Position numbers and translations under genes: made by a program
Origin: Shigella phage JK36
Sequence record: MK962754.1
Length of the DNA: 64,000 nucleotides
Strand: one strand, 5' to 3'
Notes under the pieces: generated by a model
Database searches by the model: none
What the model saw: the letters and a program-made list of their open reading frames with translations, nothing else
Told to the model about the DNA's origin: nothing
Shown: positions 3,295-7,415 of the stretch, piece by piece
Layout: each line of letters begins with the position of its first letter
How positions within the stretch are numbered: the first letter of the stretch is position 1

Positions 3295-4665
3295 ATGACT
3301 ACTATCAAAACTAAAGCTCAGCTCGTAGACAAATGGAAAGAACTGCTGGAAGGTGAAGGCCTGCCGGAAATCGCTAATAGCAAGCAGGCTATTATCGCTA
3401 AAATCTTCGAAAACCAGGAAAAAGATTTCGAAGTATCCCCTGAATATAAAGACGAGAAAATCGCTCAGGCATTTGGTTCTTTCTTGACCGAAGCTGAAAT
3501 TGGTGGTGACCATGGTTATAATGCTCAGAACATCGCAGCGGGTCAAACCTCTGGTGCAGTAACCCAAATTGGGCCGGCAGTTATGGGTATGGTTCGTCGT
3601 GCTATTCCTAATCTGATCGCTTTTGATATTTGTGGTGTTCAGCCTATGAACAGCCCGACCGGTCAGGTATTTGCTCTCCGTGCAGTATATGGTAAAGACC
3701 CTATCGCTGCTGGCGCTAAAGAAGCTTTCCATCCGATGTATGCTCCAGATGCGATGTTCTCTGGTCAGGGTGCTGCTAAGAAATTCCCAGCTCTGGCTGC
3801 TGACACTACTACTGTTGTAGGTGATATCTATACTCACTTCTTCCAAGAAACTGGTACTGTATATCTGCAAGCTTCTGCTGTCGTAACACTTGATTCTGGT
3901 GCAACTGATGCAGCTAAATTAGATGCAGAAGTTAAGAAACAAATGGAAGCTGGTGCACTGGTAGAAATCGCTGAAGGTATGGCTACTTCTATCGCTGAAC
4001 TCCAGGAAGGTTTCAACGGTTCTACCGATAACCCATGGAATGAAATGGGCTTCCGTATCGATAAACAAGTTATCGAAGCTAAATCTCGCCAGCTGAAAGC
4101 TGCTTACTCTATCGAATTAGCACAAGACCTCCGTGCAGTACACGGTATGGATGCTGATGCTGAATTGAGCGGTATTCTGGCTACAGAAATTATGCTAGAA
4201 ATCAACCGTGAAGTTGTTGATTGGATTAACTACTCTGCACAGGTTGGTAAATCTGGTATGACCCTGACTCCGGGTTCTAAAGCTGGTGTATTTGACTTCC
4301 AGGACCCGATTGATATCCGTGGTGCTCGTTGGGCCGGTGAAAGCTTTAAATCTCTGTTGTTCCAGATTCATAAAGAAGCAGTTGAAATTGCTCGTCAAAC
4401 CGGTCGCGGTGAAGGTAACTTCATTATCGCTTCCCGTAACGTAGTTAACGTACTGGCTTCAGTTGATACTGGTATTTCTTACGCTGCACAGGGTCTGGCT
4501 TCTGGTTTTAATACCGACACTACTAAGTCGTATATGGTAAAGACCCTATCGCTGCTGGCGCTAAAGAAGCTTTCCATCCGATGTATGCTCCAGATGCGAT
4601 GTTCTCTGGTCAGGGTGCTGCTAAGAAATTCCCAGCTCTGGCTGCTGACACTACTACTGTTGTAG
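3295..4665 (+). CDS. 23: gp23 N-terminal fragment (about 411 native codons then 44 out-of-frame codons)
   Basis: ORF track; C-terminal tail YMVKTLSLLALKK... is the duplicated segment read in a shifted frame. Confidence 0.8.
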   Translation: MTTIKTKAQLVDKWKELLEGEGLPEIANSKQAIIAKIFENQEKDFEVSPEYKDEKIAQAFGSFLTEAEIGGDHGYNAQNIAAGQTSGAVTQIGPAVMGMVRRAIPNLIAFDICGVQPMNSPTGQVFALRAVYGKDPIAAGAKEAFHPMYAPDAMFSGQGAAKKFPALAADTTTVVGDIYTHFFQETGTVYLQASAVVTLDSGATDAAKLDAEVKKQMEAGALVEIAEGMATSIAELQEGFNGSTDNPWNEMGFRIDKQVIEAKSRQLKAAYSIELAQDLRAVHGMDADAELSGILATEIMLEINREVVDWINYSAQVGKSGMTLTPGSKAGVFDFQDPIDIRGARWAGESFKSLLFQIHKEAVEIARQTGRGEGNFIIASRNVVNVLASVDTGISYAAQGLASGFNTDTTKSYMVKTLSLLALKKLSIRCMLQMRCSLVRVLLRNSQLWLLTLLLL

Positions 4666-5374
4666 GTGATATCTATACTCACTTCTTCCAAGAAACTGGT
4701 ACTGTATATCTGCAAGCTTCTGCTGTCGTAACACTTGATTCTGGTGCAACTGATGCAGCTAAATTAGATGCAGAAGTTAAGAAACAAATGGAAGCTGGTG
4801 CACTGGTAGAAATCGCTGAAGGTATGGCTACTTCTATCGCTGAACTCCAGGAAGGTTTCAACGGTTCTACCGATAACCCATGGAATGAAATGGGCTTCCG
4901 TATCGATAAACAAGTTATCGAAGCTAAATCTCGCCAGCTGAAAGCTGCTTACTCTATCGAATTAGCACAAGACCTCCGTGCAGTACACGGTATGGATGCT
5001 GATGCTGAATTGAGCGGTATTCTGGCTACAGAAATTATGCTAGAAATCAACCGTGAAGTTGTTGATTGGATTAACTACTCTGCACAGGTTGGTAAATCTG
5101 GTATGACCCTGACTCCGGGTTCTAAAGCTGGTGTATTTGACTTCCAGGACCCGATTGATATCCGTGGTGCTCGTTGGGCCGGTGAAAGCTTTAAATCTCT
5201 GTTGTTCCAGATTGATAAAGAAGCAGTTGAAATTGCTCGTCAAACCGGTCGCGGTGAAGGTAACTTCATTATCGCTTCCCGTAACGTAGTTAACGTACTG
5301 GCTTCAGTTGATACTGGTATTTCTTACGCTGCACAGGGTCTGGCTTCTGGTTTTAATACCGACACTACTAAGTC
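3685..5374. repeat. direct tandem duplication, 2 x 845 bp (3685-4529 and 4530-5374), 844/845 identical
   Basis: hand alignment at offset 845; single mismatch C4369 vs G5214; duplicated antisense ORFs also appear in the ORF track. Confidence 0.9.
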
Positions 5375-5708
5375 TGTATTTGCCGGTGTACTTGGTGGTA
5401 AATACCGCGTATACATCGACCAGTATGCTAAACAGGATTACTTCACCGTTGGTTACAAAGGCGCTAACGAAATGGATGCAGGTATTTACTATGCTCCTTA
5501 CGTTGCACTTACCCCGCTGCGTGGTTCCGATCCTAAGAACTTCCAGCCGGTAATGGGCTTTAAAACTCGTTACGGTATCGGTGTTAACCCGTTTGCTGAA
5601 AGTTCCCTGCAGGCTCCAGGTGCTCGCATCCAGTCCGGTATGCCATCTATCCTGAACAGCCTTGGTAAGAACGCTTACTTCCGCCGTGTATATGTAAAAG
5701 GCATCTAA
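4581..5708 (+). CDS. 23: gp23 C-terminal fragment starting at an internal Met (native frame of second copy plus true 3' end)
   Basis: 375 aa identical to the corresponding part of the upstream ORF except one residue (D vs H), then the native C-terminus ...RRVYVKGI. Confidence 0.8.
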   Translation: MYAPDAMFSGQGAAKKFPALAADTTTVVGDIYTHFFQETGTVYLQASAVVTLDSGATDAAKLDAEVKKQMEAGALVEIAEGMATSIAELQEGFNGSTDNPWNEMGFRIDKQVIEAKSRQLKAAYSIELAQDLRAVHGMDADAELSGILATEIMLEINREVVDWINYSAQVGKSGMTLTPGSKAGVFDFQDPIDIRGARWAGESFKSLLFQIDKEAVEIARQTGRGEGNFIIASRNVVNVLASVDTGISYAAQGLASGFNTDTTKSVFAGVLGGKYRVYIDQYAKQDYFTVGYKGANEMDAGIYYAPYVALTPLRGSDPKNFQPVMGFKTRYGIGVNPFAESSLQAPGARIQSGMPSILNSLGKNAYFRRVYVKGI

Positions 5709-5732
5709 TCTTAATTGATTAAATCTTATTTT

Positions 5733-5762
5733 GGGAGACTTCGGTCTCCCATTTTTGGTTTT
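5733..5762 (+). terminator. rho-independent terminator after gene 23 (GGGAGACUUCGGUCUCCC hairpin + U-tract)
   Basis: perfect 7-bp GC stem with CUUCGG-type loop followed by ATTTTTGGTTTT. Confidence 0.8.
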
Positions 5763-6030
5763 ATTTCTGTGCAATTTCGATGTAAGTTTTCAAAATATTT
5801 TGCCAATTAGGCATACCTTCTTGGACATATGCCGGAGAACCGTCTTTGTTTTTGAATGATGCAAGTTTATCAGTGGCCCAATAACCTTTAGCTCGAGCTT
5901 CAGAATCAACTTTCATCCATACTTTGTTGAAGGCATTACCATTAACTTTTGCACCATATTTTTCTACTAACTTAACTGCTTCAGCTTCCAGAACTTTTAA
6001 AGTATCTCGTAAGAAACGTGCTTTAGTCAT
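5761..6030 (-). CDS. hypothetical early protein (89 aa)
   Basis: ORF with AGGAG-type RBS and an upstream early-type promoter; sits between 23 and 24 where T4 has segD; no family recognised. Confidence 0.55.
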   Translation of the reverse strand: MTKARFLRDTLKVLEAEAVKLVEKYGAKVNGNAFNKVWMKVDSEARAKGYWATDKLASFKNKDGSPAYVQEGMPNWQNILKTYIEIAQK

Positions 6031-6060
6031 TTTGTTTACTCCTCTGTAGTTGATAAGTCT

Positions 6061-6090
6061 ATAGTATCACATACCAAATACGTTGTAAAC
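6061..6090 (-). promoter_or_regulatory. T4 early-type promoter (GTTTAC -35, 17-18 nt spacer, TACTAT -10) for the 89-aa ORF
   Basis: read on the minus strand: GTTTAC...TACTAT. Confidence 0.5.
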
Positions 6091-6096
6091 AATCTT

Positions 6097-6104
6097 TATA
6101 AATA
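6097..6104 (+). promoter_or_regulatory. late promoter TATAAATA upstream of gene 24
   Basis: exact TATAAATA about 28 nt upstream of the gene 24 start. Confidence 0.55.
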
Positions 6105-6131
6105 ATCTATATCACATAAGGAAAAAATGCA

Positions 6132-7415
6132 ATGAGTAAAATCCAAAAATTATTGCGTGAATCTACAACGTCTACTAGCAACTCAATTGGTCGCCCAAAT
6201 CTCGTTGCTTTGACTCGCGCTACGACTAAATTAATATATTCTGACATTGTAGCAACACAAAGAACTAATCAACCTGTTGCTGCTTTTTATGGTATCAAAT
6301 ATCTTAACCCAGATAACGAATTCACATTTAAAACCGGTGCTACTTATGCTGGCGAAGTTGGATATGTAGACCGAGAAAAAATTACTGAGCTCACAGAAGA
6401 ATCAAAAGTCACACTAAATAAAGGTGATTTTTTCAAATATAATAATATCGTCTATAAAGTGTTAGAAGATACACCATTTGCAGATATTCAAGAAAGTGAT
6501 CTAGAATTAGCTCTTCAGATTGCAGTCGTTCATTTAAAGGTACGGTTATTTTCAGATGCAGCGGTAACAAGCAAATTTGAAAGCTCTGGTAGCGAAATTT
6601 CTGATGCAAGATTCCAGATTAATAAATGGCAAACTTCAGTCAAATCTCGTAAACTTAAAACTGGCCTCACGGTTGAATTAGCGCAAGATTTGGAAGCGAA
6701 TGGATTTGATGCCCCTAACTTCTTAGAAGATTTGCTTGCTACTGAAATGGCTGATGAAATTAATAAAGATATTCTTCAGTCTTTAATTACTGTATCGAAA
6801 CGTTATAAAGTTACTGGAATTACTGACACCGGATTTATTGACTTGAGCTATGCATCCGCTCCAGAAGCAGGTCGTTCATTATATCGAATGGTGTGTGAAA
6901 TGGTATCACACATTCAAAAAGAGACAACTTATACTGCAACGTTTTGTGTAGCCTCAGCTCGTGCAGCTGCTATTCTTGCTGCTTCTGGTTGGTTAAAACA
7001 TAAGCCAGAAGATGACAAGTATCTTTCACAAAATGCTTATGGATTCTTGGCAAATGGATTACCTCTTTACTGCGATACCAACAGTCCGTTAGATTATGTT
7101 ATTGTGGGTGTTGTAGAAAATATCGGCGAAAAAGAAATTGTAGGGTCCATCTTTTATGCTCCATACACTGAAGGAGTAGATTTAGATGACCCGGAACATG
7201 TCGGTGCATTTAAAGTTGTAGTTGATCCGGAAAGTTTGCAACCGTCTATCGGATTATTGGTTAGATATGCTTTATCAGCAAATCCTTACACAGTAGCAAA
7301 AGACGAAAAAGAAGCGAGAATAATTGATGGCGGGGACATGGATAAAATGGCAGGACGTTCAGACTTGTCTGTTTTATTAGGTGTTAAGCTACCAAAAATT
7401 ATCATTGATGAATAA
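6132..7415 (+). CDS. 24: capsid vertex protein gp24
   Basis: 427 aa (same as T4 gp24); shares the gp23-like ELAQDL motif. Confidence 0.92.
   Translation: MSKIQKLLRESTTSTSNSIGRPNLVALTRATTKLIYSDIVATQRTNQPVAAFYGIKYLNPDNEFTFKTGATYAGEVGYVDREKITELTEESKVTLNKGDFFKYNNIVYKVLEDTPFADIQESDLELALQIAVVHLKVRLFSDAAVTSKFESSGSEISDARFQINKWQTSVKSRKLKTGLTVELAQDLEANGFDAPNFLEDLLATEMADEINKDILQSLITVSKRYKVTGITDTGFIDLSYASAPEAGRSLYRMVCEMVSHIQKETTYTATFCVASARAAAILAASGWLKHKPEDDKYLSQNAYGFLANGLPLYCDTNSPLDYVIVGVVENIGEKEIVGSIFYAPYTEGVDLDDPEHVGAFKVVVDPESLQPSIGLLVRYALSANPYTVAKDEKEARIIDGGDMDKMAGRSDLSVLLGVKLPKIIIDE

Follow-up and report, generated by a model that had tools for sequence, protein, structure and literature searches.

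In bacteriophage T4, segD lies in reverse orientation between the late head genes 23 and 24 and encodes a GIY-YIG homing endonuclease of 223 amino acids (aa). According to a 2010 review, no segD-specific promoter was identifiable and vanishingly low transcript levels were to be expected (PMC2988022); omics data for T4 class the segD RNA as early, and the protein was detected (PMC9697503, supplement). Small early open reading frames (ORFs) of unknown function are the main reservoir of take-over and counter-defence factors in the T-even phages. Here, we analyze the same junction in Shigella phage JK36 (sequence record MK962754.1). The window, that is, the whole stretch of DNA that was analyzed, comprises 64,000 nucleotides (nt), and positions refer to it unless another locus is named; its sequence is that of a T4-like Mosigvirus (RB69 group). 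The original prediction, made from the letters of the window alone, had drawn attention to an 89-aa ORF between genes 23 and 24 as an unrecognised early gene. All features that it had read from the sequence were confirmed, and its interpretation proved largely right. Our results support this ORF well as a real protein-coding gene, which is preceded by an early-type promoter. With a rough probability of 0.55, its product would be a dispensable and non-catalytic early accessory protein, which binds a host macromolecule for take-over or counter-defence.

Gene and early-type signals at the 23/24 junction

The ORF has an ATG start, occupies positions 5761..6030 on the minus strand (ORF list; translation beginning MTKARFLRDTLKVLEAEAVKLVEKYGAKVNG), and runs antisense, as had been predicted, between gene 23 (major capsid protein), which ends at position 5708, and gene 24 (vertex protein), which starts at position 6132. 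Its product has a mass of 10.1 kDa and an isoelectric point (pI) of 9.6. The region from 5600 to 6250 is 100% identical to that of Escherichia phage APCEc01 and 99.4–99.7% identical to those of dozens of other Mosigvirus genomes. The Shine-Dalgarno (SD) sequence GAGGAG (6044-6039, minus strand), which contains GGAG, is located 8 nt before the ATG and agrees with the AGGAG-type ribosome binding site named in the original prediction. Farther upstream on the same strand, an early-type sigma70 promoter consists of the extended -10 element TGaTACTAT (6061..6069, with TACTAT at 6066-6061 and TG at 6069-6068) and, across a 17-nt spacer, the -35 element GTTTACA (6084..6090, with GTTTAC at 6090-6085 and TTTACA at 6089-6084). 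This promoter stands back to back with the late-promoter motif TATAAATA of gene 24 (6097..6104, plus strand), which is 6 nt away from the -35 element.

At the other end of the gene, the stop codon (5763-5761, minus strand) lies 9 nt from a hairpin at 5732-5751 and overlaps the end of the T-tract of gene 23, so that the 3' end of the ORF does abut the terminator of gene 23. The hairpin has a GC-rich stem of 8 bp and a UUCG loop. Since it is followed by the T-tract TTTTTGGTTT when read on the plus strand, it was identified as the intrinsic terminator of gene 23 (5732..5761, plus strand). Its fold energies are -16.8 kcal/mol on the plus strand and -13.5 kcal/mol on the minus strand, with z-scores of -3.5 and -4.3, respectively. 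Read on the minus strand, the hairpin has no U-tract and marks the end of the region transcribed with the ORF.

The pattern GTTTAC-N16-18-TAYNAT had 12 matches in the window (at 6061, 8904, 21394, 28312, 28756, 31224, 33351, 34756, 35939, 45956, 56606, and 59105), whereas 0.43 were expected from shuffled sequences. All 12 matches are on the minus strand, which is the strand of the early-type genes in this window. Because the motif is both enriched and strand-exclusive, the site 5' of the 89-aa ORF is a member of a real strand-specific promoter class. The 12 sites also provide a map of candidate early promoters for JK36, and many of them occur in the extended form GTTTACA...TG(A/T)TACTAT. The features that define T4-type early promoters, namely a GTTTAC-type -35 element, a 17-nt spacer, a TG-extended -10 element, and location on the early strand, are all present upstream of the ORF.

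The signals were followed through an alignment of the locus from the window, a metagenome relative (L011, 62% identical), the Dhakavirus JS98, the Gaprivervirus VR7, and a further locus (L009). The -35 element, the TG-extended -10 element, the GGAG, and the hairpin are kept in the aligned loci, in contrast to the variable promoter spacer and 5' leader. The same pattern was repeated in ten further loci, so that Mosig-, Dhaka- and Gaprivervirus are covered. The -35 element is retained in 10 of 11 T4-like loci (L011 has GTGTAC), the -10 element is kept as TGnTAYTAT (CATAAT in the VR7 group), and GGAG is found at the SD position in all T4-like homologous loci. On early mRNAs of T4, SD sequences of the GGAG type are a known target of the RegB nuclease. 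The hairpin of VR7 has another sequence, in which pairing is retained through compensatory changes, and the late-promoter motif of gene 24 is invariant across all aligned T4-like loci, including T4. Thus, the early-type promoter proposed in the original prediction is well supported. By analogy to its promoter class, and considering the conservation of the promoter and the early classification of segD RNA in T4, the gene would be expressed early by the unmodified host RNA polymerase.

Coding evidence and distribution of the gene family

The 89-aa protein matches the profile of PHROG 6003, a family of unknown function, with an E-value of 2.1e-45 (residues 1-89 on profile positions 1-90 of 90), and so do all 23 diverse homologues that were aligned. 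A protein of exactly this sequence is encoded on 262 public contigs, where it is named ‘hypothetical protein’ every time; the identical copies include those of APCEc01, AV110, PhAPEC2, and many others. Database names of the gene are RB69ORF188c/189c, PhAPEC2_170, JS98 orf173, and VR7ORF190c, and GenBank notes tie the gene to RB69ORF188c. The ORF is not new, as more than 200 records of T4-like phages list it as a hypothetical protein. The label ‘unrecognised’ is correct for the function but not for the gene, whose annotation goes back to RB69 (as two fragments) and JS98. A literature search by gene names and accession numbers revealed no paper on the PHROG 6003 gene; literature matches to ‘ORF188c’ (44RRORF188c, RB49ORF188c) refer to unrelated ORFs in other phages.

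A tblastn search of 50,697 phage records detected the gene in 240 of them, with a full-length copy in 238. The ratio of nonsynonymous to synonymous change (dN/dS) ranged from about 0.04 to 0.16 over informative pairs. It was 0.16 between the window and L011 (synonymous differences, pS, 0.68; nonsynonymous differences, pN, 0.24) and 0.08 between JS98 and VR7, and the Vequintavirinae pair of the contig L007 and phage ABPH49 had 17 synonymous and 3 nonsynonymous differences. The ORF is still open and under purifying selection in relatives whose synonymous divergence is saturated. Together with the ORF list, the profile match and the structure model described below, these sequence comparisons give good support to a real protein-coding gene that is kept by purifying selection.

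About 120 of the records are from Mosigvirus (at least 80% identity) and about 120 from Dhakavirus and Gaprivervirus (31–38% identity); in the latter two genera, it is invariably flanked by genes 23 and 24(a) and runs opposite to them. This placement was seen in PhAPEC2, Shf125875, AV110, JS98, VR7, L009, and L011. The protein has evolved faster than its neighbours, as the C-terminus of gp23 is 85–87% identical between the same genera. Beyond these three genera, one cultured phage, ABPH49 (Vequintavirinae), carries the gene. The family is narrow, with 8 matches among 1.8 billion representative proteins in an exhaustive HMMER search and 30 among 5.8 billion proteins in a profile search. Two pattern scans, based on two subfamily profiles, found no bacterial or prophage copy in 185,579 bacterial species genomes.

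The metagenome homologues belong to arrays of small, co-directional ORFs. The contigs concerned are Vequintavirinae-like (L007, L012), lambdoid-like with NinX, Ea22, and a primase-polymerase (L005/L006), or of other kinds (L004, L023). Most of the non-T4 homologues have a sigma70-type promoter 60–80 nt 5' of the start, which on L023 is the full consensus TTGACA-17-TGgTATAAT. No neighbouring gene is conserved across the phage groups, with sharing limited to related Vequintavirinae-like contigs, and no tRNAs were found near the homologues in non-T4 phages. On L023, a 63.7-kb IMG/VR contig, the homologue (region 4900-5300) is flanked by consensus sigma70 promoters TTGACA-17-TATAAT both upstream and just past its stop, and the downstream promoter is followed by the palindrome gagccaaaacac/gtgttttggctc and a T-run. 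This region was apparently assembled from single-gene promoter units.

Natural disruptions of the gene were also observed. Phage mogra and the RB69 reference sequence have frameshifted copies, and a truncated copy is present in 310Ecol104PP. The RB69 reference (AY303349; L034 455-752) contains a +1 and a -1 frameshift with a cluster of mismatches near codons 17-22, which is why RB69ORF188c (41 aa) and RB69ORF189c (29 aa) were annotated in its place as separate mini-ORFs. Either the laboratory strain has a real pseudogene or the reference contains old sequencing errors.

Polymorphism of the 23/24 slot

The slot between the terminator of gene 23 and the late promoter of gene 24 is polymorphic across the Tevenvirinae, which bears out the view that insertions and replacements occur at this junction. 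The slot is empty in Karamvirus, Jiaodavirus, and several Tequatroviruses, where it consists of 81–85 bp with the hairpin and the late promoter. Most Mosig-, Dhaka- and Gapriverviruses carry the ORF alone, and T4, T6, and others carry segD alone; in T4 it has the equivalent place, as the original prediction had assumed, and a matching orientation. In a further group (LF82-4, F2, AV115, 04086, and others), the ORF is followed after 3–6 nt by a segD-like GIY-YIG gene. Finally, the slot of Krischvirus KFS-EC has ~740 bp (L019 2098-2834) with two tiny plus-strand ORFs of 45 and 50 aa. The 89-aa ORF is absent in T4 and in Karam-, Jiaoda- and Krischvirus.

The endonuclease of LF82-4 has 219 aa, is 57% identical to T4 SegD, and starts with an ATG 3 nt past the stop of the ORF. 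As it has no SD sequence of its own, it depends on the promoter of the ORF. About 33 records contain an endonuclease that is at least 90% identical to it. LF82-4 (PV660448; L035 1575-2980) has a Mosigvirus backbone, and from gene 24 through the promoter region to the SD sequence it shares 99.5% identity with the window. Its ORF, however, is a Dhaka-type allele, with a protein 32% identical to that of JK36 and DNA nearly identical to that of JS98. The replaced segment reaches from the last ~30 nt of gene 23 (left junction) to the SD sequence of the ORF and contains a Dhakavirus-type ORF plus the endonuclease. The pattern looks like that expected from endonuclease-driven co-conversion across genera, and two divergent alleles of the ORF appear to be interchangeable in one phage backbone. 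The locus would thus exemplify a homing endonuclease that rides the promoter of a resident gene and co-converts this gene across genus borders.

T4 segD itself (NC_000866; L015 7234-7290, minus strand) is preceded by TTTACA-17-TGaTATTAT and GGAG, which adjoin the late promoter of gene 24 in the same arrangement as in the window. This locus speaks for a promoter of T4 segD, contrary to the earlier assessment in the literature.

Tandem paralogues of gene 24 (24a/24b) exist in JS98, VR7, L009, and L011, whereas the window and other Mosigviruses have one copy; L011 pairs a Mosig-like allele of the ORF (62% identity) with the duplicated gene 24. In the window, gene 23 contains a tandem direct duplication of 845 bp (3685-4529 = 4530-5374) with one mismatch (4369 vs 5214). 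The duplication shifts the frame (845 mod 3 = 2) and splits gene 23 into the ORFs 3295..4665 and 4581..5708. It is not present in the closest public genomes (APCEc01, 99.8%), where 2601 query bases align in two pieces to 1756 record bases. It may be an artefact of assembly, reflect a mutant, or have been edited into the window.

Predicted structure and database searches

AlphaFold2 (AF2), run with the alignment of 23 sequences, modelled the protein with high confidence (predicted local distance difference test, pLDDT, 94.4; predicted template modelling score, pTM, 0.80). The model comprises a helix at residues 3-25, a second helix at 31-48, a beta-hairpin at 52-60/66-70, and a C-terminal helix at 76-88. 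A run with five sequences gave a matching topology at low confidence. The profile and structure checks suggested in the original prediction thus led to a known family and a confident model, but to no informative neighbour: Foldseek against the PDB returned nothing at E ≤ 0.001, and a fold search of the BFVD matched a member of the same family only. Searches of Pfam, NCBIfam, PADLOC, and PDB sequences yielded nothing above threshold, and the PADLOC defence-system profiles had no significant match for five family members. With regard to characterised anti-defence inhibitors, the searches of PDB sequences, PDB folds, and the BFVD, which are general libraries and not dedicated to anti-defence, matched only the family itself.

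Family members are hydrophilic, have no hydrophobic span, and are predicted to be soluble. Ten of 11 members checked have a pI of 9.4–9.8, with more K+R than D+E. The residues M1, K3, F6, G31, N32, N35, and Q70 are invariant, and N30, L14, and G64 nearly so. Analysis of the alignment columns showed a hydrophobic core with helical periodicity and a polar Asn/Gly/Gln cluster (N30-G31-N32, N35, Q70) at the turn between helices 1 and 2 and where the hairpin ends. The invariant positions include no Cys, His, Asp, or Glu, which speaks for a binding protein and against a catalytic or metal-binding role.

Several candidate relationships were rejected. No GIY-YIG domain was found by Pfam in the ORF or its 23 homologues, although the same library does detect this domain in T4 SegD, and an HNH endonuclease is contradicted by the lack of a Pfam match and of any conserved His or Cys in the family; the absence of both motifs noted in the original prediction therefore stands. 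The protein is also no SegD homologue, as no Tequatrovirus was among the matches listed in the tblastn search of the phage records and the identity bands exclude a segD-type match. Its size, charge, and MNK start had prompted a comparison to HU/IHF (DNABII), and hhalign spoke against this relationship. DUF4859 (PF16151) reached 17.9 bits compared to a cut-off of 22.6 and matched 2 of 23 members, and the matches to the ‘internal virion protein’ PHROG 8765 were sub-threshold and inconsistent between members.

A resemblance to Cyt-b5 (PF00173) emerged from the exhaustive HMMER search but consisted of a local similarity over 19 residues, which was inflated by 5–6 repeats; PF00173 itself did not match the 89-aa ORF. 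The segment W51-V69, which forms the predicted beta-hairpin, is 42–53% identical over 19 aa to the N-terminal hairpin of the Cyt-b5-like (MAPR) repeats in P0013. This metagenome protein has 655 aa and six such repeats, with the hairpin W-T-x-E-K-L-A-x-Y-N-G-K-N-x-Q-P-A-Y-I. The likeness is limited to the hairpin and to the Mosigvirus subfamily, whereas the rest of the Cyt-b5-like domain, including its ligand-binding part, is missing from the ORF. We judge that it probably reflects local convergence.

Possible functions of the protein

We propose that the locus is a self-contained early unit. It combines the 89-codon gene with a sigma70/T4-early promoter, a GGAG ribosome binding site, and a hairpin at the 3' end, and it lies in reverse in a variable slot. 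The product would be made in the first minutes of infection and would bind a macromolecule of the host (E. coli or Shigella) without catalysis, thereby either aiding host take-over or countering a defence. The gene would be an accessory one, outside the core replication and morphogenesis machinery. Binding rather than catalysis is suggested by the lack of family and PDB matches, the small number of invariant residues, and the basic pI. As alleles swap between backbones and the family occurs in unrelated phages, the target would be a component of the host rather than of the phage. The patchy presence, the disruptions, the fast evolution, the allele swap, and the lack of a conserved neighbour all point to an accessory and host-directed protein. 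Its basic charge favours an acidic partner or a nucleic acid, and the target may be either protein or nucleic acid.

Some observations weigh against this proposal. A literature search for a Mosigvirus transcriptome found none. A screen of 45 early proteins of the Mosigvirus AV110, which has an identical copy, left the gene out (bioRxiv 10.64898/2026.09.14.751387), because the candidates had been chosen by homology to early proteins of T4 and the gene has no T4 homologue. The Asn, Gly, and Gln residues may be conserved for structural reasons alone, such as helix capping or turns, and the fold search covered the PDB and the BFVD, so that a structural relative elsewhere may have been missed. Moreover, as the hairpin has no U-tract on the minus strand, the transcript may run antisense into gene 23, and the unit may have an added role at the RNA level.

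Alternatively, the protein could be a regulator that binds DNA or mRNA of the phage or the host, for example as a nucleoid- or transcript-directed early factor, instead of inhibiting a host protein. The basic pI, the excess of K+R over D+E, and the small, helical AF2 model with a beta-hairpin would suit such a role; conserved basic positions are limited to K3 and K/R39, and no conserved basic surface is evident. We consider this explanation unlikely, yet worth keeping in view. Far less probable is that the relevant function resides in the RNA or DNA, as an early antisense transcript into gene 23 or as a landing pad and expression platform for segD-type endonucleases, with a protein of little consequence. 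Antisense read-through past the minus-strand hairpin, and the SD-less segD-like gene that follows the ORF stop after 3–6 nt and relies on its promoter in LF82-4, F2, and about 30 other genomes, are in line with this idea. However, they do not account for the strong purifying selection on the amino-acid sequence, the confident predicted fold that is supported by coevolving positions, and the retention of the ORF without an endonuclease in more than 200 genomes and in unrelated phages.

A contribution to head morphogenesis, as a chaperone or regulator of gp23/gp24 or as a packaged internal protein, has a slim chance at best in our estimate. It is suggested by the location of the gene between the two head genes, which is shared by three genera, and by weak matches to a PHROG ‘internal virion protein’ (E = 0.09 for the JK36 protein; best E = 0.0015, for 2 of 23 members). 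Yet the gene is on the opposite strand behind an early and not a late promoter, is absent in T4 and several genera with the same capsid genes, and is disrupted in some viable phages. In addition, divergent alleles have been swapped between backbones, and the non-T4 homologues have small early ORFs as neighbours and lie far away from any capsid gene. The least probable of all explanations considered here is a decaying or neutral passenger that is kept by linkage to the essential capsid genes. While the frameshifted copies (mogra, RB69 reference), the truncated P0014, and the absence of any known function for the family fit a passenger, the dN/dS values, the 238 full-length copies among 240, the conserved promoter and SD sequence, and the persistence of the family across unrelated phage lineages do not. 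The evidence thus disfavours the RNA- or DNA-level, morphogenesis, and passenger explanations each.

The early accessory protein with a host target, which we favour, can be extended to a more specific and clearly more doubtful scenario, which we put forward tentatively. PHROG 6003 could represent an early effector class with a new fold that neutralises an Enterobacteriaceae host factor, either a defence or a take-over target. It would travel as a promoter-gene unit between unrelated coliphages and be a resident of the T-even 23/24 slot, where segD-type endonucleases would hijack its promoter and drag its alleles across genera.

Irrespective of the actual function, the gene is of a very common T-even kind and leaves current concepts unchanged. 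Its value lies in being a well-defined candidate for functional screens and a clean experimental target, as it combines a lone transcription unit, a confident model without a known relative, swapped alleles, and natural knock-outs.

Comparison with known systems

The JK36 copy is indistinguishable from the PHROG 6003 family and shares its slot and orientation in Mosig-, Dhaka- and Gaprivervirus. The comparison of the 23–24 region across T4-like phages, which the original prediction had suggested, thus placed the gene as one of several occupants of a polymorphic slot. T4 segD is alike in its slot, its reverse orientation, its similar sigma70/early-type promoter, and its GGAG, but it encodes a GIY-YIG homing endonuclease of 223 instead of 89 aa and has no sequence similarity to the ORF. 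Moreover, the two occur in tandem in LF82-4 and F2, and are therefore different genes and not alleles.

Among the characterised take-over and counter-defence proteins of T-even phages (Alc, AsiA, Ndd, Arn, and Dmd, as well as Emp/Gp94 of AV110), no sequence or fold similarity to the 89-aa protein was detected, the BFVD match being to its own family. By analogy, it would nevertheless resemble them in being small, non-essential, fast-evolving, patchily distributed, and expressed from an early promoter. The unit also resembles morons, since it brings a promoter of its own, is flanked by a hairpin, is inserted between late genes that are adjacent elsewhere, and recurs with its own promoter in unrelated phages. 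In contrast to classical morons, which belong to temperate phages and are expressed from the prophage, the unit described here is found in strictly lytic phages and looks like an early-lytic one.

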